The translations under genes were made by a program, and so were the position numbers. Positions 16,989 to 40,272 of a DNA stretch of 48,128 bases are shown here, one piece after another. The stretch is from NCBI GenBank assembly GCA_902542925.1, contig CACBWF010000003.1, forward strand, positions 1 to 48,128. Direction: 5' to 3'. Positions within the stretch are counted from its first letter, which is position 1. Each line of letters begins with the position of its first letter. Under the pieces are notes generated by a model. The model was not told the origin of the DNA, did not search any database, and worked only from the letters and a program-made list of their open reading frames with translations. Source of the stretch: an uncultured Alphaproteobacteria bacterium (GTDB lineage Bacteria > Pseudomonadota > Alphaproteobacteria > Methylaequorales > Methylaequoraceae).

Positions 16989-18071
16989 TTATTCATCATT
17001 GAGTTTTCTTATTGAGAGTTTTTTCATTTTTTCAATTAAAGTGGTTCGATTAATCTTTAAACTATCAGCGCTTTTTGTAACAGAACCACTATTTACTTGA
17101 AGAGCAGCTTCAATTAAATTAATTTCAATTTCACTAAGATGTCTTCTTAAATCAATTTTATCCATATATTCAAACCATTTTCTGTAATGTTTTGGGTGAG
17201 GTAATTGAGAAAGATTCTCATTTTGTTTAGTTATATTGTTATTTGATTCTTTAGTAAGCGGTAAATCTCCGGTCATGTCCCATAATCCCTCCTTTTCTTC
17301 AATTCTATCAGGAAGGCTAATTTTAATAAGATTTTCTTTTACATTATTTGATTTTATAATTGTTTTCGGAAAAATAATTGCAGCCCTCTCAATTACATTT
17401 TTAAGTTCTCTAACGTTGCCTGGCCAAATATATTCCTGCAACGCCCTTATTGCAGAGGTATCAAATTTGGGTACTAATTCTTGATTCAATGAAATTTCAT
17501 TAATTATATGGTCTACCAGAATGGGTATATCTTCCTTCCTTTCAGAAAGTGTTGGTATTTCAATTGGAAAGACATTTATTCTAAAGAAAAGATCTGCTCT
17601 AAATGTACCATCATCTATTTTTTTTTCAATGTTTTGATGGGTTGCGCAAACTAATCTTAAATCTAACTTAATCTCTTTTTTCCCACCAACTCTTTGAATT
17701 GACTTTGTTTCAATTGCTCTTAATAATTTTGCTTGCAGAGACATTGGCATGTCACCAATTTCATCAAGGAAGAGTGTTCCATTATTTGATAATTCGAACC
17801 TACCCTGTCTAAGAGAGTCAGCGCCTGTAAAAGATCCCTTTTCATGACCAAAAAGTTCAGATTCAAGAAGTTCTGAAGGTATTGCTGCACAGTTCACATT
17901 GATTAAATCACCCCCTCTTTCTGAAGAATGATGAATTGCTTGCGCAACTACATCCTTTCCACACCCAGTCTCGCCTCTTAACAAAACAGTAGAATTAGAT
18001 TTTGAAACTAAATTAACTAATTTTTTTAATTCTAGAGTTGCTTCACTATTACCTTTTATTATTTCTTCCAT
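16989..18071 (-). CDS. fleQ: Flagellar master sigma54 activator FleQ (AAA+ plus HTH, no N-terminal regulatory domain)
   Basis: GETGCGK, ESELFGHEKGSFTGA, WPGNVREL, FleQ-type HTH INRTTLIEKMKK; divergent from fleT-fliE. Confidence 0.88.
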   Translation of the reverse strand: MEEIIKGNSEATLELKKLVNLVSKSNSTVLLRGETGCGKDVVAQAIHHSSERGGDLINVNCAAIPSELLESELFGHEKGSFTGADSLRQGRFELSNNGTLFLDEIGDMPMSLQAKLLRAIETKSIQRVGGKKEIKLDLRLVCATHQNIEKKIDDGTFRADLFFRINVFPIEIPTLSERKEDIPILVDHIINEISLNQELVPKFDTSAIRALQEYIWPGNVRELKNVIERAAIIFPKTIIKSNNVKENLIKISLPDRIEEKEGLWDMTGDLPLTKESNNNITKQNENLSQLPHPKHYRKWFEYMDKIDLRRHLSEIEINLIEAALQVNSGSVTKSADSLKINRTTLIEKMKKLSIRKLNDE

Positions 18072-18082
18072 AAATACTGATG

Positions 18083-18127
18083 GTCAATTTTTTGAATTTT
18101 TATATTTAAGTATGTCAGAATCATGAC
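18083..18127. promoter_or_regulatory. Two FleQ-type boxes (upstream activator sequence of the fleT promoter)
   Basis: GTCA-ATTTTT-TGAA at 18083-18096 and GTCA-GAATCA-TGAC at 18114-18127, 31 bp apart; match the GTCA-N6-TGAC palindrome known for Pseudomonas FleQ. Confidence 0.65.
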
Positions 18128-18169
18128 AAAAATAACTTTACAAAAAAAGAAAAAAAAAAAAAGTATTTT

Positions 18170-18182
18170 TAAGTTACTGAAT
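18170..18182 (-). promoter_or_regulatory. IHF-like site between the enhancer and the fleT promoter
   Basis: ATTCAGTAACTTA on the minus strand, close to WATCARNNNNTTR; identical 13-mer at 28639. Confidence 0.55.
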
Positions 18183-18223
18183 ATATTTGGTTTTTTAAAT
18201 TTCATTTTAAAATAAATAAGCAT

Positions 18224-18239
18224 TGGTAACATTTTTGCT
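18224..18239 (+). promoter_or_regulatory. sigma54 -24/-12 promoter of fleT-fliEFGHIJ
   Basis: TGGTAACATTTTTGCT with exact GG-N10-GC spacing, 33 bp before the ATG. Confidence 0.85.
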
Positions 18240-18272
18240 TATAGGATTTGTATAAAATTTAATGAGGCAAAA

Positions 18273-19439
18273 ATGGAAGAATTATTTTTAATAAACAATG
18301 AATTTAGAAATGAAGATTTAGAACTAATTAGAAAATTTCTAGAATTTAGAAAAATTTCATCAAATATAAAAAGTTATGATGAGATAAAAGACGAAAACAT
18401 TGGTAAATCAAAAATTATTACTAACAAATTATTTGAAGAAAAGATTGGTGGTAGAGAAAAACTTATCAAATTTGGTAGAAATATTGGTTGTTCAAAAATT
18501 TTAATTTTAGAATCAAATTCTGATAAATACTCTATTCAATCACATTTAGGAGAATCTGTTTTAAATATTAGTTTTAAAAAAATAAATGATTTTATTCTTG
18601 AATTGTTGATTAATATAATCTCTCAACAAAAGTTTTCATTTGCAGATCCAAGAACATTGAGTTTGATTAAATTAGCAAAAAGAGTTGCTGAAACTGATGT
18701 CACTGTTTTTGTTCACGGTCCTACAGGAACTGGAAAAGAGGTCATTTCAAATTACATACATCAAAATTCAAAAAGAAAAGACAATCCATTTATCGCAGTA
18801 AACTGTGCTGCTATACCGGAGAATATGCTAGAAGCCATGTTATTTGGTCACGAAAAAGGTGCATTTACAGGAGCATCATCTGCTAATAAAGGAATTTTTA
18901 GGGCAGCCGATACTGGAACACTTCTTTTAGATGAGATTTCTGAAATGCCATTATCTCTTCAAGCTAAGCTTCTACGTGTCTTACAAGAGAAAAAAGTTAC
19001 ACCTATTGGAGGTCAAAGAGACATAGATGTAGATGTAAGAGTAATTGCAACTACTAATAGAAATATGATGAGTGAAGTAAAAAATAAAACTTTTAGAGAA
19101 GACTTATATTACAGGCTTAATGTATTTCCGATTGAAACAACCAATTTATCAGAACGACCAGGAGATATCATACCAATAAGCCTTGCATTGTTAAAACGCC
19201 ACGTTGAAAGTTCTTCAAAGATTCCTTTTATAAGTGAAAGTGCTCAAAAAGTACTTACCAATTATAGCTGGCCAGGTAATGTCAGGGAACTTGAAAATGT
19301 TCTTCAAAGAGCGATTGTATTATCAAAAGACAATATGATTACTGACCTGGATATCATGATTGATAACGATATCGAGACTCAAATTCAAAATTTAAATCAT
19401 AATGCTGAAGAAGCAAATAAAGCTGCTTTAGGTTTTTAG
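18273..19439 (+). CDS. fleT: sigma54 activator FleT (AAA+ without C-terminal HTH)
   Basis: GPTGTGKE, GAFTGA, WPGNVRELEN; ends shortly after the AAA+ domain with no HTH; first gene before fliE, as in R. sphaeroides Fla1. Confidence 0.85.
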   Translation: MEELFLINNEFRNEDLELIRKFLEFRKISSNIKSYDEIKDENIGKSKIITNKLFEEKIGGREKLIKFGRNIGCSKILILESNSDKYSIQSHLGESVLNISFKKINDFILELLINIISQQKFSFADPRTLSLIKLAKRVAETDVTVFVHGPTGTGKEVISNYIHQNSKRKDNPFIAVNCAAIPENMLEAMLFGHEKGAFTGASSANKGIFRAADTGTLLLDEISEMPLSLQAKLLRVLQEKKVTPIGGQRDIDVDVRVIATTNRNMMSEVKNKTFREDLYYRLNVFPIETTNLSERPGDIIPISLALLKRHVESSSKIPFISESAQKVLTNYSWPGNVRELENVLQRAIVLSKDNMITDLDIMIDNDIETQIQNLNHNAEEANKAALGF

Positions 19440-19448
19440 GAGGTAAAA

Positions 19449-19787
19449 ATGAAACCAAGAATGACAACATTGACACCAGATATTAGTAATACTCAAGAAA
19501 CTGTAAAAAAATTACAAGAAAATATTATAAATACCACCAGACAATCAGTAAGTGATAATACTGATTCAGGAAATTTTTTAAGTAATATCGAAAAAGCTAT
19601 TCAAAATGTATCAGATACTCAAAAACAAAGTGCTGAGATAACTAAAAATTTTGAACTTGGATTTGAGAATGATTTAACTAAAGTTATGATTCAACAACAA
19701 TTATCATCATTAGGTTTTCAAATGACATTAAATGTTCGGAATAAAGTTTTGAGTGCTTACAAAGATATAATGAATATGCCCGTTTAA
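19449..19787 (+). CDS. fliE: Flagellar hook-basal body protein FliE
   Basis: C-terminal VRNKVLSAYKDIMNMPV. Confidence 0.95.
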   Translation: MKPRMTTLTPDISNTQETVKKLQENIINTTRQSVSDNTDSGNFLSNIEKAIQNVSDTQKQSAEITKNFELGFENDLTKVMIQQQLSSLGFQMTLNVRNKVLSAYKDIMNMPV

Positions 19788-19810
19788 GAATTATTAATTA
19801 GGATAAAAAA

Positions 19811-21526
19811 ATGGCAGAACAAACACAAAATATTAAAACAGTAAATGAACTCTCAAGTTCTGGTAGTAATTTGATGAGTAGAGCAACCAACATGTTAGAA
19901 AACTTTCAAAAGTTTTCTAACGAACCAGCTGTTCAGAGATCAATTCCAGTTATGATAACATTGTTCGTTATTTTTATTGGTATTGTACTTTTTGTAAGCT
20001 TCAGAGAACCACCAAAGACAGCACTTTTTTCTGCTCTACCAGAAAGTGAAAAATCACGTATTGTTGATGTACTCAAAGCTAATGGTATTGATGTTTCTGT
20101 TGATAGAACAACAGGAGAAGTTTTAGTTCCCTCACCTGAATATTATGAAGCTAGAATGAAACTTGCTGCCGAAGGGTTACCGAGTTCTGTACCGCAAGGT
20201 TATGATTTACTTGAAGACATTCCTTTAGGTACAAGTAGATCCGTCGAATTTATGAAAATGAAACAAACTCAAGAAATAGAATTGTCTAGATCTATAAATG
20301 AAATTTCTCATATCTTAGGAGCAAGAGTTCACTTAGCTATTCCAGAAAAATCTGTATTTGTAAGAGATTCAGCACCTCCAACTGCTTCAGTATTTATAAA
20401 GCTAGCTGATGGAAGAGTATTATCAAAAGAGCAAGTTCAATCTATAGTACATATTGTTTCATCATCAATTCCCAATATGGCATCTGATAATGTAACAGTT
20501 GTTGATCAGTATGGAACTTTATTATCCAAACCAGAAAATGACCCAAATTCTGCGTTAACGGAAAAACAATTAGCACACAGGTTAAAGGTCGAAAAACTAT
20601 ATAGAGAGAGGATAATTTCTCTTGTTACCCCAATAGTTGGACCAGGTAATTTAACGGCTCAGGTAAATATCTTAATGGACTACACAAGTTCTCAAGTTAC
20701 AGAAGAAGTTGTAGACCCTGAATCAATTGCAAAGCGTAGTGAGCAAAATAGTGCTGAAGAGTCGGCTGATAGACCTGCAAGAGGCATACCTGGTGCGGTA
20801 GCTAATCAGGCACCTCTTGCCGCAGAGTTAGGAACTGAAGCACCACAAAGTGAAGCTGAAGCTGAATTTAGACAGAGATCAACCAGTAATGTTAGAAATT
20901 ACGAAGTTAGTAAAAAGTTAAGTACAGTGGTCAAGCCTGTTGGAATTATAACAAAAGTAAAAACAGCAGTTTTAGTAAAAAATAAATTAGTGGAAACACC
21001 AGAAGGTATTGTATCTCAACCAATAAGTGATGAAGATAGAGAAAAAATCTCATCTCTTGTAAAAGAAGCCGTTGGATTTGAAGAAGATAGAGGTGATTCT
21101 ATTGTTGTTACAAGTGGTGAATTTATTGATGAAATTGATGTTCTTGAAACTAAATGGTATGAAAAATCTTGGTTTCAAAATATGGTAGGTCAACTATCAA
21201 CAGTTTTAATATTAGCAATAATAACATTTGGAGCATTAAAACCACTTCTTAATAGAATTCTGGTACCTGTTTCTGCAGGTGGAACAATGGTTACAGATTC
21301 TGATATTGAAGATGAAAAAGAAGAAGAAGTTGAAGTACAAGAAGGTGAGTCGTTAGAGGATATTAAAGCCAAACTTAAACCAAAAAAATCTGCTATTTCA
21401 GCTGAAATGTTGGATACAGCAAATACATATGATGATAAAGTTGCAGTCATAAGAATGATTGTAGGAGATGAATCAGGAAAAGTTTCTAATGTATTTAGAC
21501 AATTACTTCAAAAAGAAACAAATTAA
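19811..21526 (+). CDS. fliF: Flagellar MS-ring protein FliF
   Basis: ARMKLAAEGLP, ARVHLAIPEKSVFVRD, ASVFIKL, VTVVDQYG; two TM helices. Confidence 0.97.
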   Translation: MAEQTQNIKTVNELSSSGSNLMSRATNMLENFQKFSNEPAVQRSIPVMITLFVIFIGIVLFVSFREPPKTALFSALPESEKSRIVDVLKANGIDVSVDRTTGEVLVPSPEYYEARMKLAAEGLPSSVPQGYDLLEDIPLGTSRSVEFMKMKQTQEIELSRSINEISHILGARVHLAIPEKSVFVRDSAPPTASVFIKLADGRVLSKEQVQSIVHIVSSSIPNMASDNVTVVDQYGTLLSKPENDPNSALTEKQLAHRLKVEKLYRERIISLVTPIVGPGNLTAQVNILMDYTSSQVTEEVVDPESIAKRSEQNSAEESADRPARGIPGAVANQAPLAAELGTEAPQSEAEAEFRQRSTSNVRNYEVSKKLSTVVKPVGIITKVKTAVLVKNKLVETPEGIVSQPISDEDREKISSLVKEAVGFEEDRGDSIVVTSGEFIDEIDVLETKWYEKSWFQNMVGQLSTVLILAIITFGALKPLLNRILVPVSAGGTMVTDSDIEDEKEEEVEVQEGESLEDIKAKLKPKKSAISAEMLDTANTYDDKVAVIRMIVGDESGKVSNVFRQLLQKETN

Positions 21527-21540
21527 TATAGAATAGAATT

Positions 21541-22590
21541 ATGGCTGAAAAAAAAGTAGATAATACTCAAGAAGAAGAAGAAAAAACACCATATGAGAGA
21601 CTAAGTAACACTCAAAAATGTGCTGTTCTTATGATGCTTCTTGGAGAAGATGAAGCTGCAGAAATTTTAAAGAACCTTGGACCAAAAGAAGTACAACAAC
21701 TCGGAAAAGAGATGTATTCAGTTGCGGGTTTAGATCAAGATACAGTCAATCAAGTATTAGATGAATTTCTTGCAATAATTAAAACACAGACAGATTTAGG
21801 AATGGGATCTTCAAATTATATTAGAAATGTGATGACTAAAGCATTGGGTGAGAATAAAGCACAATCAGTTCTTGGAAGAATCACTCCCACGGAATCTGAT
21901 AAACCAATCGAAATTCTTGATTGGATGGATGCCAGATCTGTCACAGAATTAATTGCCGATGAACATCCACAAATAATGTCTCTTGTTATTTCTTACTTAG
22001 AACCAGGAGTTGCAGCTGATGTGTTAGTAATGCTTCCGGAAGATATTCAAGCAGACATAATTCATAGAATTGCTACACTTGAAACAGTTCAACCAGATGC
22101 ACTTCATGAACTTGAAAGAGTGATGCAACTTAAGTTTAAAACTAATACATCTCTAAGAGCTTCTTCAGTTGGTGGAGTAAAAGCTGCAGCACAAATTATG
22201 AATTTTACTAAACAAAATATGGAAGGAAGGATAATAAAGTCATTAGGGGAAAAAGATCGACTTTTAGCAAAAGATATCCAAGAAAGTATGTTTACATTCG
22301 ATACATTGATACTGATGGATGACAGGAGCATGCAAACATTGTTAAGAAATGTTGAACAAGAAGTTCTAATAATAGCGCTTAAGGGCACAGATGACGAATT
22401 GAAAGAAAAAATATTTTCATGTATGTCTCAAAGAGCTGCTGCTAACATACAAGATGAAATGGAAGTTTTAGGACCACTAAGGTTAACTGAAGTTCAGGAA
22501 GCGCAGAAAGCAATTATTAATGTTGCAAGAACAATGTCTGATGAAGGGTCAATCGTTCTTGCTGGAAGAGGTGGAGATGATTACGTATGA
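21541..22590 (+). CDS. fliG: Flagellar motor switch protein FliG
   Basis: EHPQ, GGVKAAAQIMN, MFTFD, GPLRLTEVQEAQ. Confidence 0.97.
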   Translation: MAEKKVDNTQEEEEKTPYERLSNTQKCAVLMMLLGEDEAAEILKNLGPKEVQQLGKEMYSVAGLDQDTVNQVLDEFLAIIKTQTDLGMGSSNYIRNVMTKALGENKAQSVLGRITPTESDKPIEILDWMDARSVTELIADEHPQIMSLVISYLEPGVAADVLVMLPEDIQADIIHRIATLETVQPDALHELERVMQLKFKTNTSLRASSVGGVKAAAQIMNFTKQNMEGRIIKSLGEKDRLLAKDIQESMFTFDTLILMDDRSMQTLLRNVEQEVLIIALKGTDDELKEKIFSCMSQRAAANIQDEMEVLGPLRLTEVQEAQKAIINVARTMSDEGSIVLAGRGGDDYV

Positions 22591-23441
22591 TGCAAAATCA
22601 AACAAACCTAAAAAAAAAAGAAAATAATTCTTTAAATACAGACGAAATTCTTGGAATTCTTAGAAAAGCAAATAAGGATTTTACAAAAGAAACTGATATT
22701 TCTGGTAAAATATCAAATACTTTTCAAAGAACTGACATAATTAAAATTGCTAGGAAAAATAGTGGGACAAAGCAAGATATAACTTCTGAAAATAAAGTCA
22801 AAAATGAAGCTAAAAAAAATAATCAGCCTGATGAAACAAAAAGCAAAGATTCTGATAAAAAAATAGAAACAGAAAATAAACCAAAATTAATAAAAAAGTA
22901 TACTGAGCAAGAAGCAGATTTAAAAGCAAAAGAATTAGCAAAAAAATATTATTATCATGGATACAATTTAGGCGTTAAAAATATTAAAAAAGAATTACAA
23001 AAAGGAGAAAACAACTTAGCAATAACTCTTAAAAATACCATCGATAATCTTTTTTTTGTTTCAAAAGAATTTACTGAAAAGCTCTCTAAGGAAATTAATG
23101 TTTCAATTTTAAAACTTTGCAGGGAAATAATTGGGTATGAAATATCATTAGAACCTGGAAAATTTAATCAGAAAATATCCAAATTAGCTGATTTAATATC
23201 TAATTCAACAAACAAAATTAATGTGTTTCTTAATCCTGAAGATTTAAAAATTATTGCTAAATACTTAGAAAGTCATAAACCAAATACAGATATCAATCTT
23301 AGAGAAGATAGCAAGTTAGAAAGAGGAGATATTAAAATTAGTTCTGGTGAAATTGAAATTGAAGAAATATTCTCAAAAAAAATATTGTTTAATGATGATT
23401 TTGAAATAGCAAATCAATCACACACCCCAAAAAAGAAATAA
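22587..23441 (+). CDS. fliH: Flagellar assembly protein FliH
   Basis: Position between fliG and fliI; GYNLG, LNPED and DSKLERGD C-terminal motifs. Confidence 0.85.
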   Translation: MMQNQTNLKKKENNSLNTDEILGILRKANKDFTKETDISGKISNTFQRTDIIKIARKNSGTKQDITSENKVKNEAKKNNQPDETKSKDSDKKIETENKPKLIKKYTEQEADLKAKELAKKYYYHGYNLGVKNIKKELQKGENNLAITLKNTIDNLFFVSKEFTEKLSKEINVSILKLCREIIGYEISLEPGKFNQKISKLADLISNSTNKINVFLNPEDLKIIAKYLESHKPNTDINLREDSKLERGDIKISSGEIEIEEIFSKKILFNDDFEIANQSHTPKKK

Positions 23442-23442
23442 T

Positions 23443-24762
23443 ATGTCGGCTATTCTAAACAAAATCCATGAAAACTTTTCAAAAACTTCTTTAAAAAAAG
23501 ATAAAATTTATAAAGGTAAAATTTCAAGATTTGATGGTAAAATTGCTGAATGCAGTGGATTTCCAAGTCCTATTGGAACAATTTGTAAGATTAATTGTAG
23601 TGATGATAAGTTTGTAACTGGAGAAATAATTGGTTTTAAAGATGGCAGAAATTTATTAGCTATTCATGACTTAAACGCAAATGTTATTTCTGGTGCACCG
23701 GTTGAAGTAATTGAAAATGGATTTTACATAAATGTGAGTGATAAATTACTAGGAAGAGTTATTAATGCTCAAGGTAAAGCTATAGATGGTTCAAAACCGA
23801 TAGAAATAAGTGAAAATTATTGGCCTATTACAGGTAAATCAGTTAATCCTATGAACAAGGAACCAATTAATGAACCATTAGATGTTGGTATTAAAGCAAT
23901 TAACTCTCTTCTAACAGTTGGCAGAGGACAAAGACTCGGAATAATAGCAGGCTCAGGTGTGGGAAAATCTATACTACTTAGCATGATGACCAAATTTACG
24001 TCTGCAGATGTAGTAGTTGTCGCTCTTATAGGGGAACGCAGTAGAGAAGTTGGTAGCTTCGTAAGACAGGTTTTTAATGAAAAAACAAGACAAAAAACAG
24101 TTATTGTTGCGGTTCCAGCAGATAAATCTCCTCTGTTAAGAATTAGGGGGGCTGAAAGGGCAACATCTATTGCAGAATATTTTAGAGATAAAGGGAAAAA
24201 TGTTTTGCTTATTATGGACTCTCTTACTCGAATTGCCCATGCCAAAAGAGAGGTTGGTTTAGCATTAGGTGAACAACCAACATCAAAAGGGTATCCTCCA
24301 TCGGTTATTTCAATGCTACCTAATTTAATTGAAAGAACTGGTACAGGCACCAACGGTGGAAGTATTACTGCATTTTATACTATCTTGGCGGACTCTGATG
24401 ATACTAATGATCCTGTAGTTGATACTGCAAGAGCAATATTGGATGGACACATAGTACTTTCGAGACAACACGCTCAGATGGGAATATACCCTGCTATAGA
24501 TATAAATTTATCTTTAAGTAGGGTTATGAATTCAATCGCTGAAGAAAAGCATATTGAAAAGGCTACTTATATAAAAAAACTTTATTCATTGTATTTAGAA
24601 AATAGGGATCTTGTGTTAATGGGTGGGTATAATAAAGGTCAAAATGAAGAAATTGATAAGGCAATTGAAAACTGGTCTAAGATTTGCAAATTAATCACCC
24701 AAGCAGAAGACCAGTCTTCAAATTTTGAAGATAGCCTAAAAGAATTATACTCAATAAATTAA
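23443..24762 (+). CDS. fliI: Flagellar export ATPase FliI
   Basis: AGSGVGKS, LIGERSREV, DSLTR, KGYPPS, LDGHIVLSR. Confidence 0.97.
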   Translation: MSAILNKIHENFSKTSLKKDKIYKGKISRFDGKIAECSGFPSPIGTICKINCSDDKFVTGEIIGFKDGRNLLAIHDLNANVISGAPVEVIENGFYINVSDKLLGRVINAQGKAIDGSKPIEISENYWPITGKSVNPMNKEPINEPLDVGIKAINSLLTVGRGQRLGIIAGSGVGKSILLSMMTKFTSADVVVVALIGERSREVGSFVRQVFNEKTRQKTVIVAVPADKSPLLRIRGAERATSIAEYFRDKGKNVLLIMDSLTRIAHAKREVGLALGEQPTSKGYPPSVISMLPNLIERTGTGTNGGSITAFYTILADSDDTNDPVVDTARAILDGHIVLSRQHAQMGIYPAIDINLSLSRVMNSIAEEKHIEKATYIKKLYSLYLENRDLVLMGGYNKGQNEEIDKAIENWSKICKLITQAEDQSSNFEDSLKELYSIN

Positions 24763-24763
24763 A

Positions 24764-25174
24764 ATGAAGAAAAAAACTTATAATTTATTACTTCTAAAAA
24801 AAAAAATAAGTAAAAATCAATCTTTCAAAGAAATTTCCTCTCTTTCAAAGGAAAAAGATAAAAATAGAAATGCTGTTAAATCTCTTAATGATTTATTAAA
24901 CAAAAGTAAGTCAAATATAGGGCAACTACTGACAAGTAGTGATCTAAAAAATATGTCATATTTTCAAGAAGAGATTCGAAAAAGAGTAGAAATATCAAAA
25001 AGCAGAGAAAATTTCTTACAAGCTGAAATTAAAAGTAAAATGAAAGAATTATCAAAAATAAAAAAACAGGAAGAGGTTGTTAAGAATAAAATTAAAGATA
25101 TTGATTACCTTTCAAATGAAGAAACAGAAAAGAAAACAGAAATCACTCTTTTTAATAAAGGCTCAGGTTTGTAA
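24764..25174 (+). CDS. fliJ: Probable FliJ (coiled coil)
   Basis: 136-aa coiled-coil protein 1 bp after fliI; call is mainly positional. Confidence 0.7.
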   Translation: MKKKTYNLLLLKKKISKNQSFKEISSLSKEKDKNRNAVKSLNDLLNKSKSNIGQLLTSSDLKNMSYFQEEIRKRVEISKSRENFLQAEIKSKMKELSKIKKQEEVVKNKIKDIDYLSNEETEKKTEITLFNKGSGL

Positions 25175-25183
25175 AAATGTACA

Positions 25184-25199
25184 TGGCATTAGATTTGCA
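25184..25199 (+). promoter_or_regulatory. sigma54 promoter of fliKLMN
   Basis: TGGCATTAGATTTGCA with exact spacing in the fliJ-fliK gap. Confidence 0.88.
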
Positions 25200-26531: not shown

Positions 26532-26559
26532 GTTTATACAATAAAAAAGGAACAAGGTT

Positions 26560-27201: not shown

Positions 27202-27219
27202 TTTTATTTAAGGAAAAAT

Positions 27220-29847: not shown

Positions 29848-29858
29848 TGAGATAAATT

Positions 29859-30125
29859 ATGGGTTTTGACGAAAATATTGAAATGGTAAGACTAGCTTTT
29901 TATCAAGTATTAATTTCCAGTGGACCTTTTCTGGGAGCAGCTTTAGCTATAGGATTAACAATTGGTATTATTCAAGCCGCAACATCAATTCAGGAAATGA
30001 CACTCAGTTTTGTACCTAAAGTTGTCCTAGTAATTTTCGCTATGGGTTTTATGGCAAACTATTTTATCGTAAGCCTTACAGACTATTTTTCTTTTATATT
30101 TGATACTATTAGCGGAATTAAGTAA
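29859..30125 (+). CDS. fliQ: Flagellar export gate protein FliQ
   Basis: QAATSIQEMTLSFVPK. Confidence 0.97.
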   Translation: MGFDENIEMVRLAFYQVLISSGPFLGAALAIGLTIGIIQAATSIQEMTLSFVPKVVLVIFAMGFMANYFIVSLTDYFSFIFDTISGIK

Positions 30126-32094: not shown

Positions 32095-32296
32095 CAGTAA
32101 TGTAAGCAAAATTATAGTAACTTTTGCTTTTTTCTACAGTGCAATCATATGTTATTTCAAAGGTGAGCAACTTTATAATGAGGGACAAATTTTATATGCA
32201 ATAGTACTTTGGGTTTGCGCATTTTTGTCCTTTATAGGGGCTTTAAGATTCCAGGTTGCAAAATTAATATATTTTTTTAGAGACAAAAAATGGTAA
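32087..32296 (+). CDS. Small two-TM hypothetical protein
   Basis: ATG at 32087 overlaps the flhB stop; two hydrophobic helices; overlaps the next ORF. Confidence 0.65.
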   Translation: MFSSNVSKIIVTFAFFYSAIICYFKGEQLYNEGQILYAIVLWVCAFLSFIGALRFQVAKLIYFFRDKKW

Positions 32297-32505
32297 AAAA
32301 AGCTAATATTCTTGATTGTAAAAAATGTAAACATTTGTATGTTACTTATGATAAGTTTTATCCTTGGGGATGCAAAGCATTCGGTTTTAAATCAAAAAAT
32401 TATCCTTATAATGAAGTTTACTCGATTTCTGGCATGAAATGTGCTCTATTTAGTATGAATAATAAATTTGGACAAAAAACAGATAAAAAGGGAAGATTTG
32501 CATGA
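32290..32505 (+). CDS. Small four-Cys putative metal-binding protein
   Basis: CKKCKH..YVTYD..PWGCKAFGFKSK..SGMKC pattern; overlaps both neighbours. Confidence 0.75.
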   Translation: MVKKANILDCKKCKHLYVTYDKFYPWGCKAFGFKSKNYPYNEVYSISGMKCALFSMNNKFGQKTDKKGRFA

Positions 32506-33227
32506 ATACGCAACTTAATACGATGCAAGAAAGTATCAAGATCGCTCTAGATGCAGCAGATGCTGCTACGGATGTTACGTCTGAATACAAAAGAATGAAA
32601 AACGAATACATAAAAGCGGAGCAAAAAGTGAAAGAAATACACAAATATACAACAATAATTTTTTCGGCTTCAATTGCAACAGCAGTTGTATCAGTTATTT
32701 TAATAGGCTTGTTATATTTTAAATCATTATCTGAACTTGAAGATATGACTAGTACTAGTAAGGAAGCTCTTGTAGTTTTTGCTGAAAATGTCGAAAATGT
32801 AAATAAAGCTGTTGATAACATGAATCAAAGTTTAAATAAACACTCTGATTTAGTTAATGCAAATATTGAAATCAAAGATAAGCTAAATATGTTAATGAGC
32901 GCTATTGAAAAAAATGACAAAAATTTGATGGTAAGTCTTTCAAAAGAGGTTTCAAATCTTTCAAAAGAAATTTCATCTTCTCTAAAAGCTGAGACTGGTA
33001 AACTGAATCAAAATATTCAAGAAAGCGACGTAATGACATCTGCTAAGGTTAACAAAGCCGTAGAAAAACTTCTTAACGATACAAATAAAAAACAAAACGC
33101 TAAACTGCTAAAGGAGCTTTCTAATAATACTTCAAGTTTGACAGCAGCGCTTGAAGCAATTTCTAAACAAAATAAAGTATTAGTTAAAGAAATTGTTGAT
33201 CAAAAAGAAAGTATAACCTATCCTTAA
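32502..33227 (+). CDS. motF: Probable MotF-like Fla1 motor protein
   Basis: 241 aa, single TM at about residues 51-73, coiled-coil periplasmic part, downstream of flhB. Size, topology and position agree with R. sphaeroides MotF as recalled; not aligned. Confidence 0.6.
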   Translation: MNTQLNTMQESIKIALDAADAATDVTSEYKRMKNEYIKAEQKVKEIHKYTTIIFSASIATAVVSVILIGLLYFKSLSELEDMTSTSKEALVVFAENVENVNKAVDNMNQSLNKHSDLVNANIEIKDKLNMLMSAIEKNDKNLMVSLSKEVSNLSKEISSSLKAETGKLNQNIQESDVMTSAKVNKAVEKLLNDTNKKQNAKLLKELSNNTSSLTAALEAISKQNKVLVKEIVDQKESITYP

Positions 33228-33235: not shown

Positions 33236-34018
33236 ATGGAGCAAGTAAATAAGTCCGAAAGTTTTCTTAAAATTGATAGTTTTACAAGGAAAACTGTTGC
33301 TCAATCCTTATTACTAAAAGATAATGATGTAATTGTTGCTCTCGACAATAATCTTTATTTAAAAGGCGAAAATGCACTAATTGAGGATTTAAATTTACTT
33401 AAAAAAGAAGAGAAAAAAACGATACTTACAATTTTCAGAGAAGGTGGTTTTTTTGACGTACTAGTTTCTGGTAGCTTAGGAGCTAAATTTATATCTACTG
33501 ATAATGATGAAACAAAATTAATTTCTGAAAAGTTTTCAAAAAAAGAAATTTTCGATCAAATAGATTTAAAAGAATATATTGCAATGAGGGATTTAACTCA
33601 CAATTATGAAATAATATGCAAATCTAAGTCTTTGTTTGCTGGTTTAATGCCACCGATGTGGCTTGCATACCACAGTAAGTGGTGGTTAATATCTCTTTTT
33701 GCAGTATTAAGTTTTTTACTCATTTCTACTAATTTTTGGATTTTCCTTTTTGGTTGGGTATGTGTGAGTATTTATTGTTACATAGGTCAATTAGAGCTTT
33801 TAATAAGTTTTGCACTTCTGTCCGGGAAAGCATACTCAATGATACTATGCGCAACTGATATGGATCACGCTCAAAAGGTTGTGAGGGAACATAATCCCAA
33901 AGCCAAATACAAGGTGACGAGGTTAGGAGATCCTATTAAATCCGATCAAGAAAATAATAGTAAAGAAGATAAAAATCTAAAAAATAAGATTTCTGATTCA
34001 CAAGAAGCTTTGATATAA
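33236..34018 (+). CDS. Hypothetical membrane protein: PDZ-like N-terminus plus DUF2628-like TM region
   Basis: AQSLLLKDNDVIVALDN...ILTIFREG resembles the PDZ core; FAGLMPPMWLAYHSKW resembles DUF2628. Confidence 0.6.
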   Translation: MEQVNKSESFLKIDSFTRKTVAQSLLLKDNDVIVALDNNLYLKGENALIEDLNLLKKEEKKTILTIFREGGFFDVLVSGSLGAKFISTDNDETKLISEKFSKKEIFDQIDLKEYIAMRDLTHNYEIICKSKSLFAGLMPPMWLAYHSKWWLISLFAVLSFLLISTNFWIFLFGWVCVSIYCYIGQLELLISFALLSGKAYSMILCATDMDHAQKVVREHNPKAKYKVTRLGDPIKSDQENNSKEDKNLKNKISDSQEALI

Positions 34019-34054
34019 TTATAAAGTAAATTATATAAAATTAAGAGGTTATTG

Positions 34055-34663
34055 ATGGTCGTAGCAAAAAACGAACAATATTCTGTTCAAGCAGAAACAT
34101 TAATGAAAGCAGCAATTGAAGATTATCTTGAGCTAATAAAAGAAATTCAAGCTTCAAATGCAAATATGAAATTGATAAAAAGTATTAAAATTACTGTGAA
34201 CGGTAAACCAAGACGGTTAGTTGATGTCGGTGACCTAAAAACGGGTGAAAGTGAAAATCAATTAATTCTTTTAGTTTTTAATACAGATCACGTAGAACTT
34301 CTTTTAGACCAGATTGATGAGCTACAATTTGAATCATCAGTTGATGGTCAATTCATTAAAATTAATGTTCCTGATCCAAGCTATAAACAATTAATGGAAG
34401 TAGTAGACGACTTAAATAGAAAAAAAGGAAGTTGTATTGGAAGACTTACCAAAGCTAAATCTGAAGCAACTACAAGGGCAAGAACTGCAGTTGAAAACGA
34501 GTTTATTGAGCAAGCAGTTGCATCTAGGGCTACAAAAGTTTGCGATGAATTCTTAAGTCAATACACAGAAAAAGTAAATGAAATAACCACAGAAAAGATT
34601 CTTGAAATTTTAGGTGAAGATTATTTTAATAAATATAAAACTGAAGAATTAGACGAATTTTAG
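34055..34663 (+). CDS. Degenerate ribosome recycling factor (RRF)-like protein
   Basis: Nearly ungapped manual alignment to E. coli RRF over about 175 aa, with the conserved Arg residues lost; GAGG RBS 6 nt before ATG 34055. Confidence 0.72.
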   Translation: MVVAKNEQYSVQAETLMKAAIEDYLELIKEIQASNANMKLIKSIKITVNGKPRRLVDVGDLKTGESENQLILLVFNTDHVELLLDQIDELQFESSVDGQFIKINVPDPSYKQLMEVVDDLNRKKGSCIGRLTKAKSEATTRARTAVENEFIEQAVASRATKVCDEFLSQYTEKVNEITTEKILEILGEDYFNKYKTEELDEF

Positions 34664-35305: not shown

Positions 35306-36499
35306 TCAATAATTTATTTCTATTTCAATTCTTCTATTTTTTGCTCTTCCTTGAGAAGTATCATTTGACTCAATAGGTCTTGTTTCACCATAACTAATTG
35401 CCTTCATTCTTTTTGGATCAAGAGAATCATTTTTTGATAATTGTTGTACAACCGATGCTGATCTGGCAGCTGCTAAATCCCAATTATCTCTGTAATTTGA
35501 ACCAAATGTCAAAGGCACATTATCTGTGTGACCCATTACTAAAATTTCACTTCTACCTTTTTTATTTTGTTCGGCAATCTTTGCCATTATATCTCTAGCC
35601 TTCCTTGTAAGTTCTGCTGAACCAGATTTAAAGGCACCTGCAGATCCTACCGTAATAATTACTTTATCATCATCCCTGTCAACGTTCACAAGACCCTCAC
35701 CTATTTCCTCTCTCAAAGCAACTTTAAGTTTATCCTCTGCTAGTTCAGCTTTTTTTGCCTCTTCCTTTGCCGATTGACTTTGTTCAGATTGACCAATACT
35801 ATCGCCTTCTGTTCCCTCTGCTTGACTTTCACCTTTGCTACTCGCAGCAGTTGCAAGATTTGATAAAGCCTTTTCTAATCCCCCAATTAGGACTTCTGTT
35901 TCAGATTTGCCACTTGATGATTTAACTGATTCTATTGAATCTAAGGTCTCTTTTAATAAATTTGGAAGTTCTTTCTCTTTAGCATCTAGTGGAGTAAAGT
36001 TAACTACTACTTTATCAGCTAAAACTTCAACCTCAATATCACCTCTAGCTATTGCGTCTTTGATATTTTTTGCTAACTCTGTTGCTTCTTCATCTTTACC
36101 TTCATCCTTTGTTGCATCTTGGGTTTTAGTTTTTAACTCAACATTTGGTTGGTCTGTCTCAGTAGTTTGCTGAGTCATATTTTCTGTAACCGCAGGTGTT
36201 GGGTTTGGACTAAAATTTAGCGATAAAATTGTAGTTCCTTTTGGTTGCTCAACTACCGGTATCACTCTTTGAATTCCAAAAGCATTTTTCATACTACCAC
36301 TTATTTGTTTAAACTTAGGTACATTAAACTCAGCAAATGATAGAATTAAAACAAAAAAAGCCATTAAAAGTGTTGCCATATCAGCAAAGGTTGCCATCCA
36401 TGCCGGAGCACCTTTAGGCGGACAAGCAGGACATTCATGCTCCTCTTCTTCATCCTTTTTTTCTTCTTTTTTTTTCTCTTCGACTTGTTCTTCAGCCAT
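35306..36499 (-). CDS. motB: Flagellar stator B subunit (PomB-like)
   Basis: WMATFADMATLLMAFFVL TM with Asp40; OmpA-like domain GHTDN, NWDLAAARS, NRRIEI. Confidence 0.95.
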   Translation of the reverse strand: MAEEQVEEKKKEEKKDEEEEHECPACPPKGAPAWMATFADMATLLMAFFVLILSFAEFNVPKFKQISGSMKNAFGIQRVIPVVEQPKGTTILSLNFSPNPTPAVTENMTQQTTETDQPNVELKTKTQDATKDEGKDEEATELAKNIKDAIARGDIEVEVLADKVVVNFTPLDAKEKELPNLLKETLDSIESVKSSSGKSETEVLIGGLEKALSNLATAASSKGESQAEGTEGDSIGQSEQSQSAKEEAKKAELAEDKLKVALREEIGEGLVNVDRDDDKVIITVGSAGAFKSGSAELTRKARDIMAKIAEQNKKGRSEILVMGHTDNVPLTFGSNYRDNWDLAAARSASVVQQLSKNDSLDPKRMKAISYGETRPIESNDTSQGRAKNRRIEIEINY

Positions 36500-36510
36500 T
36501 TTTTGACCTA

Positions 36511-37278
36511 TTAAGCTGCAGCTTCAACTAGCGCTTGTTTCTCTTTAGGAGGAAGATTAGCAACTAATTGATCTTGAATATTTCTTCCACTTTCGCCCCT
36601 TGATATTAATTGTAATCCTATTATTATCATGTCTCTGTAAATTTGTTCATACAAAGAATAGCCTTTTAATTTTGTAACAATTGGCATAAAAATTGTGTTT
36701 GCAATCATCGCTCCATACAGTGTAGTCAATAGAGCAACCGCCATTGCAGGCCCAATTGCTTTTGGGTCTGCCATGTTACCAAGCATTGCAACTAATCCTA
36801 CTAATGTTCCAATCATACCCATTGCAGGAGCAATATCGACCCAAGCTTGAGCAACACCAATCATTTTCTCGTGGCGTTGTTGCATGCTTTTTAACTCTTT
36901 TTTTAACTGAACAGTTAATTTTTGCTCATCTGCACCATCTACAAGCATTTGAAGACCTCCGTCAAAAAAGGGATCAGGAGTTTCCTGCCCCTCTAATGCC
37001 ATCATACCGTCTTTTCTTGCAATTCCGGCTAGCTCTACAATTCTTGTAATTAATTCATCCATTTTCTTTACAGGTGGTTTAAAAGCTTTACCCATAGCAC
37101 CAAATGAACCCAAAAAAACAGGTAGAGGTGCCGTATACATGACAGCAAAAAAAGAACCCCCAAAAACAATTAAAATTGAAGGTATATCAATATATGATCC
37201 AAGCCCACCTGCTGAAATCATTGCACCAGCAATCATTCCTATGGTACCTAAAAAACCTATGAGAGATGCTAAATCCAT
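36511..37278 (-). CDS. motA: Flagellar stator A subunit (PomA-like)
   Basis: ARKDGMMALE, PAMGMIGTLVGLV, AMAVALLTTLYGA; 255 aa. Confidence 0.96.
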   Translation of the reverse strand: MDLASLIGFLGTIGMIAGAMISAGGLGSYIDIPSILIVFGGSFFAVMYTAPLPVFLGSFGAMGKAFKPPVKKMDELITRIVELAGIARKDGMMALEGQETPDPFFDGGLQMLVDGADEQKLTVQLKKELKSMQQRHEKMIGVAQAWVDIAPAMGMIGTLVGLVAMLGNMADPKAIGPAMAVALLTTLYGAMIANTIFMPIVTKLKGYSLYEQIYRDMIIIGLQLISRGESGRNIQDQLVANLPPKEKQALVEAAA

Positions 37279-37397: not shown

Positions 37398-37874
37398 ATG
37401 AAAAAAAACTTTAGCCTAATTACAGTCTTATTGAACATTTTTTTTAGTATTAATCATTTAAATGCAACTAACCTTATAGACAAAGGTTATTATGTAGTTG
37501 ATCTCAAACAAAAAGTAGATTGGTTAAAATGTTCTGCTGGACAGCAATGGGATGACACAAATTGTAGTGGTGAAGCTATCAAATTAAATCTTGAAGAAGC
37601 CGAAATTGCATTAAATCAACTCAATGAACAACTAGAAGGTGAATGGAGACTTCCAACTAAGAAAGAATTGAAAAGTTTAGTATGTAGCGATTGTACAGGA
37701 GCAAAAATTAATAAAAAATATTTTCCAAACACACCTGCAGAACCTTTTTGGACCTCACAGAGAAATTGGTGGTCGCCCAAATTTTATTGGTCAGTTAATT
37801 TTTTTACTGGGCATGTTTATGGTAGATTTGTACCGGAAAAAAGATTATTTTTGAGATTTCTTAGAGATCGCTAA
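37398..37874 (+). CDS. Secreted DUF1566 (Lcl C-terminal-like) domain protein
   Basis: Signal peptide, WLKCSAGQQW, WRLPTKKELKSL, FPNTP..FWTS. Confidence 0.88.
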   Translation: MKKNFSLITVLLNIFFSINHLNATNLIDKGYYVVDLKQKVDWLKCSAGQQWDDTNCSGEAIKLNLEEAEIALNQLNEQLEGEWRLPTKKELKSLVCSDCTGAKINKKYFPNTPAEPFWTSQRNWWSPKFYWSVNFFTGHVYGRFVPEKRLFLRFLRDR

Positions 37875-38092
37875 TCTTTTTTACTTTGAAAATATTGGAG
37901 TAATTTTATTACAAATACAAATAATCCTGATATTAAAACAAATATTGCAAAATTAAGCGGCGTGACAAATTTCAAAAGGTGCAGTTGGTCTGAGGCTGTA
38001 AGTGCAACAATTATTATTAAAAGAACTGAAAATATAAAGTATCTGATCGATAAGCATAAAAAACATCCTTTTTTATCATCATTTTTTGACAT
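37871..38092 (-). CDS. Small two-TM hypothetical protein
   Basis: ATG at 38092 overlaps the upstream gene end; CFLC followed by two hydrophobic helices. Confidence 0.6.
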   Translation of the reverse strand: MSKNDDKKGCFLCLSIRYFIFSVLLIIIVALTASDQLHLLKFVTPLNFAIFVLISGLFVFVIKLLQYFQSKKD

Positions 38093-38621
38093 AACACTCA
38101 AATTTTAAAGATTTACTATATTTACACACGTCATTAGCAAAAGATATTTTATTAGTTGGAAGTACAAGCCTATATAAACCATTTTTTTTGTCCTGAATTA
38201 TTAATAAATTAATATTTTTAAATTTTGGTTTGAGCTTATTTTCAATTAACTTTTCTAATTCAATAAGATTTTTTTTTGTTTTATATACCCCATATTGAAC
38301 AAAATATTGTTGAATATTAGGCGGTAAACTTTCTATAATGACTTTTCCTAAATTTTTATTAAGTTCTTTTTTCACAATTTTTTTTTCTTTTAAAGAATTT
38401 TGTTCAGACAATTTTTTTTCAGCAAGTGATTTCTTTTCTTGAATAACCGAAGTTAAAATTTTGTCTCTGTCAATTTTAAATTTTTTGTCAAATACGTCTA
38501 GTTGATTGTTAATAATATTTTTTGATTTATTTAAGTTTTCTTGCGTCAAAAAAATAACATTCAAGAAAATCAAAATAAAAATAATAGAAATTATATTAAA
38601 AGGAAGTAAAAAAATCATCAA
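38079..38621 (-). CDS. Membrane-anchored protein with a degenerate SPOR domain
   Basis: N-terminal TM; C-terminal YFVQYGVY...GLYRLV...ANDVC..K....ECYV pattern typical of alphaproteobacterial SPOR domains. Confidence 0.62.
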   Translation of the reverse strand: MMIFLLPFNIISIIFILIFLNVIFLTQENLNKSKNIINNQLDVFDKKFKIDRDKILTSVIQEKKSLAEKKLSEQNSLKEKKIVKKELNKNLGKVIIESLPPNIQQYFVQYGVYKTKKNLIELEKLIENKLKPKFKNINLLIIQDKKNGLYRLVLPTNKISFANDVCKYSKSLKFECYVKK

Positions 38622-38728
38622 GACTACTCTAGCATTTATACTTAAAAAAAAAAGAAAAAATACACAAAAAACAGCAATTTACACATTTTTGAATAATTTA
38701 CTTCTGAAAAATTACTTTTTAAAACAAA

Positions 38729-38742
38729 GTCAGGTTTTTGAC
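38729..38742. promoter_or_regulatory. FleQ-type box upstream of rpoN, overlapping a candidate sigma70 -35
   Basis: GTCA-GGTTTT-TGAC; TTGACT(38738-43)-N17-TAAAGT(38761-66). Confidence 0.55.
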
Positions 38743-38817
38743 TAAAAAAAATTGTCAAATTAAAGTTTTGCTTTTTATTCTTAAAATTGTGAGATTATAA
38801 TAAAAGGAGATATTATT

Positions 38818-40272
38818 ATGCAAATAACACAGAACCTCAAATTAAAACAGAGTCAGTCATTGGTAATGACTCCTCAATTACAACAAGCTATAAAATTATT
38901 ACAACTAACAAATTTAGAGCTATGTGATTTAGTTAATAAAGAATTAGAGGAAAATCCTTTTCTTGAAGACAGCAAATTTGAAGAAAACAAAGGTGAGGTA
39001 GATCATGAAAATGAGACACATAACCTCGAAGACGAGTTTGTCAGTAAAGATGCAATGGATTCTGAAATAAAATCAGAAGCATATGATAATTGCTGGGATA
39101 AAGAATTAAATTGTAATAATAAATCACAAAATTATGAAACAATCGATGCTGGTTCTGTTGCTGAACAAACGGTTAGTGAGGAAATAACACTGAAGTCAGT
39201 TCTCACAGATCAAGCTAATTTAGAATTTGATAAAGATGATGAAAAATTTATTTCTCGAGTTTTGATTGATTATATTGATTCATCTGGTTGGATGACAAAA
39301 GATTTAAAAGAAATTTCTGAAATTATTGGATGCGAAGAAAATAAGGTTCAAACTATAGTTGATAGAATGAAAGATTTTGAACCCAGCGGTGTTTTTGCTC
39401 AAAATCTACAAGAATGTTTGACAATTCAATTAAAAGCAAAAGAATTATTTAATGATAAAATTAAAATACTACTAGAAAATTTTGATTTGTTAGCAGCCGG
39501 TGAAATTAAGACTATTTGTAAGCAAGGTAATTGTTCAAGAGAAGAGATTGCTAAAAATTTAGCTGTTATTCGACAAATGAACCCTAAACCAGGGAATATT
39601 TATGCTGCACCTGAAAATAATATTTTTCACCCAGATGTTATTGTAAAACGCAAAAATAATACTTGGGAAGTTGAATTAAATCAAAGTACACTGCCTAAAA
39701 TTGTAGTTAATGAAAATTACGCAAATCAATTAAACAATTTAAATTGTAGTCAGGGTGATAAAAAGTTTATTACAGAATCAATTGGATCTGCCAAATGGTT
39801 AGTTAAAGCAATTGAGCAAAGGAATATAACCACACTCAAAATTAGTAGTGAAATTGTTCAACAGCAAAAAGAGTTTTTTGAAAAAGGTTTATCATACTTA
39901 AAACCTATGATACTCAAAGATGTCGCAAAAAAGATTGGAATGCATGAAAGTACGGTAAGTCGAGTAACAAGTGCAAAACTTATGCTTACACCAAGAGGTA
40001 TATTTGATATGAAACACTTTTTTAGTGCATCAATTAATAGTACAGAAAAGGGTGAATCATATTCAGCGGCTTCAGTAAGAGAAACTCTCAAAAATTTGAT
40101 TTCAAGTGAACCGCTTAATCAGCCATTTAGTGATGAGGTAATTGTTTCAAAACTTCAGAAAGAGGGAATCAACCTTGCTAGGAGAACAGTTGCTAAATAC
40201 AGAGAATTAATGTGTATTCCATCATCAGCAGAGAGAAGAAAAATAATGAAAATTCAAAATATAGGCATTTAA
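38818..40272 (+). CDS. rpoN: RNA polymerase sigma-54 factor
   Basis: MTPQLQQAIKLLQL, ELEENPFLE, HESTVSRV, RpoN box ARRTVAKYRE. Confidence 0.98.
   Translation: MQITQNLKLKQSQSLVMTPQLQQAIKLLQLTNLELCDLVNKELEENPFLEDSKFEENKGEVDHENETHNLEDEFVSKDAMDSEIKSEAYDNCWDKELNCNNKSQNYETIDAGSVAEQTVSEEITLKSVLTDQANLEFDKDDEKFISRVLIDYIDSSGWMTKDLKEISEIIGCEENKVQTIVDRMKDFEPSGVFAQNLQECLTIQLKAKELFNDKIKILLENFDLLAAGEIKTICKQGNCSREEIAKNLAVIRQMNPKPGNIYAAPENNIFHPDVIVKRKNNTWEVELNQSTLPKIVVNENYANQLNNLNCSQGDKKFITESIGSAKWLVKAIEQRNITTLKISSEIVQQQKEFFEKGLSYLKPMILKDVAKKIGMHESTVSRVTSAKLMLTPRGIFDMKHFFSASINSTEKGESYSAASVRETLKNLISSEPLNQPFSDEVIVSKLQKEGINLARRTVAKYRELMCIPSSAERRKIMKIQNIGI

Follow-up and report, generated by a model that had tools for sequence, protein, structure and literature searches.

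An intact fla3-type flagellar gene set, with no chemotaxis genes found, in the open-ocean order TMED127/Methylaequorales

Introduction

What is a flagellar gene cluster doing in a streamlined bacterium of the surface ocean, where did it come from, and is it still in use? These questions are raised by a 48,128-nucleotide stretch of DNA from an uncultured alphaproteobacterium (GenBank assembly GCA_902542925.1, contig CACBWF010000003.1; contig C3 of genome G000 below), the whole of which we call the window and in which a preliminary description had recognized flagellar genes from fleQ to rpoN. The window holds half of a set of the fla3 type, the type of Rhodobacter sphaeroides Fla1, with the genes for the export apparatus, switch, stator and master regulators, and the intact, order-wide set likely builds a rotating, probably Na+-driven flagellum that would run without chemotactic steering. 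The system is of a known kind in variant form: a sole flagellum with no chemotaxis genes found, a giant hook and split control of its flagellins.

TMED127/Methylaequorales is described, in the available text of PMC12542740, as a single-family order of surface-ocean methylotrophs with genomes of ~1.5 Mb that contributes up to about 10% of surface metagenomic reads. The 2025 supplement of that study already labels these genes 'Flagella', without comment, and flagella, motility and chemotaxis are not discussed in the accessible part of its main text. Our literature search, limited mainly to titles and abstract openings with subscription papers mostly beyond reach, found no description of the flagellar type, or of a lack of chemotaxis, in TMED127 or SAR116.

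Results

The flagellar block of the window

The block comprises the following features (aa, amino acids; HTH, helix-turn-helix; ORF, open reading frame; TM, transmembrane segment).

16989..18071, minus strand: fleQ-like sigma54 activator; Pfam Sigma54_activat and HTH_8, no N-terminal sensor domain
18224..18239, plus strand: sigma54 -24/-12 site of the fleT-fliEFGHIJ unit
18273..19439, plus strand: fleT-like sigma54 activator without HTH, divergent from fleQ
19449..25174, plus strand: fliE, fliF, fliG, fliH, fliI and fliJ; family matches, fliJ by position
25184..25199, plus strand: sigma54 site before fliK
25236..28594, plus strand: fliK, fliL, fliM and fliN; family matches
28680..28695, plus strand: sigma54 site before fliO
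28731..32094, plus strand: fliO, fliP, fliQ, fliR and flhB; family matches, fliO weak
32066..32505, plus strand: two small conserved ORFs, one of 76 aa with two TM, one of 71 aa and cysteine-rich
32430: sigma54-like site before the MotF-like gene, within the 71-aa ORF
32502..33227, plus strand: MotF-like protein, 241 aa, 26.7 kDa, one TM at 52-70
33236..34018, plus strand: conserved cassette protein, 260 aa, two TM
34052..34663, plus strand: divergent ribosome-recycling-factor-like ORF (Pfam RRF, 8e-11)
35306..37278, minus strand: PomB-like motB and PomA-like motA
37337: sigma54-like site before motA
37398..37874, plus strand: Lcl_C (DUF1566) protein, adjoining motA in every cassette that extends this far
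38818..40272, plus strand: rpoN (sigma54); family match
40543..41196, minus strand: soluble lytic transglycosylase; its homologue directly follows flgL in genome G207
41222: sigma54-like site before the lytic transglycosylase gene
41230..43131, minus strand: M23 peptidase and 182-aa ORF
43181: sigma54-like site before the 182-aa and M23 genes

All genes that the preliminary description had listed (fleQ, fleT, fliE to fliR, flhB, a motF-like gene, stators and rpoN) are uninterrupted ORFs; its right boundary, drawn at the end of rpoN, was too short, as sigma54-like sites continue to 43181. The absence of an HTH from FleT also stands, with only 56 residues after the lid motif in a same-type relative vs 108-131 in HTH-bearing homologues, as do the PomAB-like stators, since the best NCBIfam and PDB matches of MotB and MotA are Vibrio PomB and PomA. 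The fleQ-like product, which is 42% identical to its Octadecabacter arcticus counterpart and 56-57% to those of other genomes carrying this type (carriers, below), is the predicted master activator; within the partial assembly it and the fleT-like protein are the only such activators and rpoN is the only copy. FliJ had no family match and is named by position, as mainly is FliO, whose match was sub-threshold (1.4e-6).

The 241-aa protein is called MotF-like from its position, size and topology and not from a sequence match to MotF, which in R. sphaeroides has 24 kDa and a TM at 54-74 (PMC7277832). Homologues occupy the corresponding position in O. arcticus and in four further carriers; the protein had no Pfam match, and homologue and Atlas searches returned only hypothetical proteins for it, as they did for the neighboring 260-aa protein, whose single-sequence fold was unusable (predicted local distance difference test, pLDDT, 46). 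The lytic transglycosylase is probably SltF-like, and the FlgJ encoded on contig C1 has only 103 aa; the role of SltF is known from R. sphaeroides (PMC7277832). The M23 peptidase and the 182-aa ORF are probable members of the regulon.

Two side observations concern this region. The RRF-like ORF is the sole RRF-like match in the partial assembly and was not encountered in cassettes from other families. After rpoN, positions 40543-44382 hold the lytic transglycosylase, the M23 peptidase, the 182-aa ORF and three bactofilins, and the sigma54-like sites at 40510, 41222 and 43181 suggest that wall-remodelling genes belong to the flagellar regulon.

Host and integrity of the contig

Genome G000 (872 kb, 54% complete, 0.5% contamination, 29% GC) lacks rpoBC in its partial assembly, and its family assignment was taken from the classification tool. 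In an RpoC tree, three members of that family form one clade (support 100) with AG-892-F10 and TMED13, with identities of 79-87% to these two and of at most 69% to other alphaproteobacteria. Both records are placed in TMED127/Methylaequorales in the accessible text of PMC12542740, and the window's host is a member of this order.

The block sits, as first described, among alphaproteobacterial-type housekeeping genes, its flanks matching in kind and composition: GC content at third codon positions (GC3) is 0.15-0.23 in the flagellar genes and 0.14-0.21 in the flanks (genome mean 0.193, standard deviation 0.027). The junction between trhO and fleQ recurs in 26/26 informative loci of relatives (32 in total, the other six stopping at contig edges), with the same housekeeping genes behind trhO in all 26. 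Contigs of two independent studies also span this junction at ~17 kb (run X2, 16388-17181; run X3, 16885-17484). The chimera at this point that the preliminary description had held out as a danger is ruled out by the recurring junction, the bridging contigs and the uniform GC3.

The remainder of the flagellar set

The other half of the set lies on further contigs of G000, so that the genes are spread over at least three loci.

Contig C40: flhA
Contig C1: flgG-L, four flagellins (514, 262, 261 and 258 aa), fliD and three fliS-like genes
C1:53799-58868: FlgK, 1,689 aa
C1:60868-65845 and 74240-75016: flagellins, including three short divergent ones
Contig C28: flgE and flgF
C28:5972-9757: giant hook protein FlgE, 1,261 aa

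The genes flhF, flhG, fliA, flgT, flgA, flgM and flgB-D are cut off at contig ends in G000 and were found in the named relative AG-892-F10. An LPP20 lipoprotein gene adjoins flhA in G000, and AG-892-F10 has LPP20 together with FlgT_N (FlgP/FlgT). FlgJ is without a muramidase domain. Self-BLAST of FlgE and FlgK gave no internal repeats. The three short flagellins (258-262 aa) are about 30% identical to the 514-aa flagellin and conserved family-wide. A reduced, export-only apparatus was considered and rejected, as rod, hook and flagellin genes are present on other contigs or in the relative.

Contig C1 also carries, from about 65.8 to 92 kb, an island of sugar-modification and glycosyltransferase genes among and after the flagellins, with several sigma54 sites; it is a probable flagellin glycosylation locus, and its stretch from fliS to the third short flagellin differs in length among relatives. 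A ClC-type chloride channel gene (C1:75746-77260) lies beside fliD and fliS in TMED127, in three other carriers and on the O. arcticus plasmid. In AG-892-F10 an extra FlgG-like rod protein of 278 aa is encoded beside fliA (locus L178:4904-5740), with a sigma54-like site at its start.

Flagellar type and origin

The best plasmid match of the cluster is pOA238_118 of O. arcticus 238 (NC_020909.1; FliF 45%, next best 28-35%). The two clusters share the order fleQ, divergent fleT-fliE to fliR-flhB, small ORF, motF-like gene and 260-aa gene as well as rpoN, motAB, Lcl_C and ClC neighbors, with 45% identity in FliF, 67% in FliG and 68% in MotA, and both encode giant FlgE and FlgK proteins (1,410 and 1,436 aa in O. 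arcticus vs 1,261 and 1,689 aa here). The O. arcticus cluster differs in being plasmid-borne and studded with insertion sequence elements, in a host described as non-motile. Clusters of its type are defined as fla3, equivalent to R. sphaeroides Fla1, and are sporadic (23/284 clusters) and horizontally spread in Rhodobacterales, according to the available text of PMC5030684 and PMC12363192. We use the Fla1-type label on the strength of the O. arcticus cluster and of these papers, which equate fla3 with Fla1, with FliF of O. arcticus and Rhodosalinus sediminis as named stand-ins for R. sphaeroides sequences.

In FliF+FliG trees (FastTree, 76 rows; LG+C20 with quick posterior mean site frequencies, 40 rows; LG, 27 rows), TMED127 joins four alphaproteobacteria of ~2 Mb (99), then Octadecabacter with G207, then G768, so that it falls in one clade with the O. 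arcticus fla3 system (Shimodaira-Hasegawa-like approximate likelihood ratio test, SH-aLRT, 99). In all trees this clade is sister to Sphingomonadaceae inside a gamma/beta-type group, which a long branch (100) separates from native alphaproteobacterial FliF+FliG; a grouping with native alphaproteobacterial flagella was rejected (approximately unbiased test, AU, p = 7e-6). The gamma-like flagella of Sphingomonadales (Sphingomonas paeninsulae, Qipengyuania citrea) share the order fliE-fliR-flhB; they differ in an HTH-bearing activator before fliE and in FliF sequences that are 28-34% identical. The sister group of Sphingomonadaceae plus fla3 is made up of genome G743, from another class, and some 20 metagenomic FliF representatives; it is a candidate source group of an ancient transfer.

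Features checked against the review of Fla1 (PMC7277832) point the same way: FleQ with a second activator, FleT, heading fliEFGHIJ; cluster-linked rpoN and sigma54 promoters; FliA/FlgM, FlgP and FlgT; a very large FlgK; FlgJ without muramidase beside a separate lytic transglycosylase; and a gamma-like phylogeny. The putative MotF counterpart resembles MotF in size and topology. Unlike in R. sphaeroides, neither chemotaxis genes nor a second flagellum under CtrA control turned up in the genomes searched, and CtrA itself had no match in two near-complete ones; the hook protein has 1,261 aa rather than 423, one of the four flagellins, the long one, follows a sigma54 site, and the genes occupy at least three loci. 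A native CtrA-controlled alphaproteobacterial flagellum fits neither the phylogeny nor the CtrA search of two near-complete genomes. The horizontal, gammaproteobacterial-type acquisition originally proposed is upheld as to type, Fla1/fla3; the acquisition is not peculiar to this lineage. Because the cassette is common to other pelagic alphaproteobacterial orders and to roseobacter fla3, the nearest donors or recipients are alphaproteobacteria; the trees, which do not root it, are consistent with a deeper gammaproteobacterial origin.

Conservation and selection within the family

FliF was found in 32 of 36 relatives, near full length at 75-98% identity in 31 and as a fragment in one; those without a match are 56-84% complete, and no second, native-type FliF was found among the 36. 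FlhA occurs in 37/42 family genomes, in 9/9 of those at least 90% complete and in 14/14 genera, and the flagellin domain likewise in 37/42, usually with five matches.

For 21 genomes (20 of the 32 loci and the window), a tree set built on five flagellar proteins and one built on five housekeeping proteins of the flanks have 14 of 18 splits in common, ten of them strong, with no strong conflict; as the two sets are physically linked, this shows co-inheritance of the block. Mean distance is 0.22 for the flagellar and 0.47 for the housekeeping proteins, the flagellar proteins being the more conserved. Against the closest locus, the ratio of non-synonymous to synonymous substitution rates (dN/dS) is 0.013-0.049 for fleQ, fleT, fliF, fliG, fliI, fliM, fliP and fliR (fliF 0.039, fliI 0.035), as against 0.20-0.23 for fliK and fliH; fliG (0.015) and fliM (0.013) have the lowest values and so the strongest measured purifying selection. 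The idea of an old, ameliorated and intact acquisition is borne out: the ORFs are uninterrupted, and the set passes vertically within the family, is under strong purifying selection and has the GC3 of its host. In Rhodobacterales, by contrast, fla3 is sporadic and horizontally spread, whereas in TMED127 it is fixed across the order.

Promoters and regulatory wiring

The conservation of promoters that had been supposed is confirmed. The sigma54 site of the fleT unit is kept in 31/31 loci, that before fliK in 33/33 and that before fliO in 33/34 (two loci overlap in one genome), and four control positions gave 0/40, 0/34, 0/25 and 0/25. G000 has 11 occurrences of a strict sigma54 motif where 3.6 would be expected, seven of them before flagellar genes and three in the glycosylation island, and within the family a site precedes flgL in 17/17 loci and the long flagellin in 21/21.

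A second motif, TAAA-N14-16-GTCGTT, precedes the first short flagellin (19/19), fliD (20/21), fliS (19/19; one locus counted twice) and the third short flagellin (8/20), and is missing before the long flagellin (0/21) and flgL (0/17), with a background of 0.003 per search window; it was derived from the same upstream regions in which it was first counted, so that fliD and fliS of other genomes make the fairer test. The motif resembles the sigma28 consensus, and we infer a sigma28 identity for it. A scan with the canonical consensus gave scattered chance matches, none before the long flagellin. A small hypothetical ORF of the window (44372-44701, minus strand), with the sigma28-like motif at 44670, is a candidate late-class flagellar gene.

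In R. sphaeroides Fla1, fliC is a class IV, sigma28-dependent gene, whereas here the long flagellin stands behind a sigma54 site and the short ones show the reverse. A similar promoter split is found in Shewanella putrefaciens, where, according to the available text of PMC6299084, one flagellin is RpoN-dependent and FliA-independent and the other FliA-dependent, giving proximal and distal filament segments. The likeness is one of wiring only; between the two flagellin classes here there is a twofold difference in size and an identity of about 30%.

Steering and stator

Chemotaxis genes, whose search the preliminary description had proposed, were not recovered: CheW and the methyl-accepting chemotaxis protein (MCP) signalling domain were each found in 0/42 family genomes, with controls positive in 8/14. 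Five genomes (54-99% complete) had no CheY-sized receiver; their 1-5 receiver proteins each, 4-5 per TMED127 relative, lie in frames of 222-483 aa. Outside TMED127, CheW was not found in five other carriers, and five single-contig carriers had no receiver frame under 187 aa. CtrA was not found among the six OmpR-size regulators of two near-complete genomes; these are PhoB-, PhoP/PmrA- and OmpR-like, and the best of them reaches 184 bits with the CtrA model, whose cut-off is 350. The N-terminal LSxxEVxAL peptide of FliM, the CheY-binding motif, is kept in 7/7 TMED127-type loci checked and recognizable in other carriers.

MotA keeps G154, T158, T185 and T186, corresponding to PomA Na+-site residues given in the available text of PMC10374538, and MotB keeps the channel aspartate; by these residues the flagellum is probably sodium-driven. 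The Fla1 motor of R. sphaeroides turns one subpolar filament in a single direction, alternating runs with stops.

Expression

Table S5 of PMC12542740 lists 44 genes of AG-892-F10 labelled 'Flagella' in Sargasso Sea metatranscriptomes. Mean transcripts per million (TPM), that is, community reads mapped to one genome, with the second-last column, whose header is not visible, taken as the mean, are 956 for fliC, 1215 for a short flagellin, 1291 for fleT, 2730 for fliP, 2378 for flhA, 562 for motA, 3864 for rpoN, 2627 at the fliO position and 3137 for flgP, beside 185 for ftsZ, 325 for rpoB and 108 for gyrA. The motF-like gene reaches 593 vs 96 for the ORF that holds its site. The highest values lie directly behind predicted sigma54 sites, above ftsZ, rpoB and gyrA, and the flagellar set is transcribed in situ. 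RNA-run contigs that cover most of the cluster show neither strand nor level and were not used as expression evidence.

Spread beyond TMED127

Of 397 other alphaproteobacterial genomes, evenly sampled, five carry this type (FliF 45-53%). One of them, G175, belongs to an order in which 64/81 genomes have FliG at 65-75% identity and 1/81 has CheW (0/61 high-quality ones); the FliF of G175 has as its sister a protein named 'Candidatus Puniceispirillaceae', and by this one named protein the order is probably SAR116. The cultured SAR116 member HIMB100 has 41 COG-N genes, its motility being listed as unknown (PMC3368413). The same type is found in 15/41 genomes of the family of another carrier, G420.

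A single host clade for TMED127, the G175 order and the G420 family was rejected with RpoB+RpoC (p-AU 3e-5; 1e-4 without TMED127). As the flagellar proteins form one clade and their hosts do not, the system must have passed at least once between pelagic alphaproteobacterial lineages. In host trees, TMED127 and the SAR116-like order appear as sisters under LG with bias trimming (SH-aLRT 94), an arrangement absent with C20 on 18 rows, and in the untrimmed host tree TMED127 joins an AT-rich long branch; on these trees the two may share the flagellum by descent or by transfer.

Other genes of the window

Next to der, a position conserved in relatives, lie a gene resembling that of flavocytochrome c sulfide dehydrogenase and a small ORF of cytochrome type (9769-11338, minus strand). 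Positions 1403-5429 hold rpsF-rpsR-DUF2232 followed by a Na/Ca exchanger and dnaB, with no match to rplI, a gene that usually lies here. The 54%-complete assembly yielded no xoxF or rhodopsin motifs, from which no conclusion is drawn.

Discussion

On the reading that we prefer, FleQ with sigma54 would switch on fleT-fliE-J, and FleQ and FleT together would then drive the fliK, fliO, motF-like, motAB, lytic transglycosylase, flhA, flgB, flgG and flgL units and also, unlike in R. sphaeroides, the long 514-aa flagellin. Completion of the hook would lead to export of FlgM and free sigma28, which would drive the short flagellins of about 260 aa, fliD and fliS, so that the filament may have a base of long and a remainder of short flagellin. 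Without CheA, CheW, MCP and CheY the motor would not leave its default state; Brownian rotation would reorient the cells, which would vary only their speed or flagellation, via ion-motive force or gene expression.

Several points weigh against this picture. Swimming and flagella in TMED127 are predicted here from genes, and Octadecabacter type strains that carry fla3 only are described as non-motile in the available text of PMC5030684. Only 9/42 family genomes are at least 90% complete, and broken copies occur: flhA is split in G027 and fliC, fliD and flgL in G061, and loci L013 and L035 have several broken genes, housekeeping ones included, which may be sequencing errors. Transcript values of mixed community origin are low for motB (137), flgK (78) and fliA (98; PMC12542740 Table S5), and the sigma28-like motif was partly counted where it was derived. 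A divergent sensory system would escape Pfam searches, and the kept FliM peptide hints at a ligand of the switch. R. sphaeroides Fla1 is H+-driven (PMC7277832), so the stator threonines are no proof of Na+.

How far do other explanations account for the same data? An assembly or binning artefact, with a chimera at about 17 kb, might be suspected in a fragmented, 54%-complete assembly, yet with the recurrent trhO-fleQ junction, the bridging contigs from two studies and the even GC3 it is scarcely credible. A reduced export apparatus or decaying relic would suit a streamlined host, the five of 42 genomes that lack each marker searched and the scattered broken copies; it is highly improbable given that no part of the set is missing among rod, rings, hook, junction, filament, cap, chaperones and stator, that dN/dS is low, and that the promoters are kept across genera and the genes transcribed.

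The flagellum might also be assembled and serve mainly as a surface appendage, in attachment to particles or phytoplankton, as drag or in avoidance of grazers and phages, with rotation incidental or rare. The very large hook protein and FlgK, the variable glycosylation island with its own sigma54 sites, the chemotaxis genes not found and the sole-fla3 Octadecabacter described as non-motile all lend themselves to such a role. We nevertheless think it unlikely, since the stator ion-site residues are intact, the host has retained FliL, the MotF-like protein, FlgT and a full C-ring, FliG and FliM are the most constrained proteins measured, and a large FlgK is required for swimming in R. sphaeroides (PMC7277832). 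Cells might, alternatively, swim and be steered by a non-canonical input, such as a FliM ligand, light sensed by proteorhodopsin or ion-gradient-dependent stops. The conserved FliM peptide, the cassette proteins of unassigned role (the 260-aa protein, Lcl_C and the ClC channel) and the high transcription of proteorhodopsin in TMED127, reported in the accessible text of PMC12542740, would fit; with CheW, MCP and a stand-alone receiver not found in the genomes searched and no candidate sensor domain in the cassette, steering of this kind seems rather improbable. An unsteered, rotating flagellum remains the likely product of these genes.

With this distribution the fla3/Fla1 type, which has been studied in Rhodobacterales as a sporadic second flagellum, also takes in lineages where it is the only flagellum and is vertically inherited. 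Quite possibly, and we put this tentatively, the chemotaxis-free, giant-hooked, Na+-driven cassette is a shared module of streamlined open-ocean alphaproteobacteria (all TMED127 genera, most of SAR116 and part of a third family) that moved between unrelated pelagic lineages and is strongly selected, so that many bacteria taken for passive would swim blind on a two-part filament of early, sigma54-dependent long and later, sigma28-dependent short flagellin. By summed ORF coordinates the flagellum takes roughly 50 kb, or 3-4% of a TMED127 genome, while steering genes were not found, which would uncouple motility from chemotaxis in oligotrophs and raises the question of what unsteered swimming gains a cell. 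The question is testable, as the same cassette appears common in SAR116, which has cultured members. If the reading is true, a sizeable share of the surface-ocean bacteria now counted as passive would swim blind.

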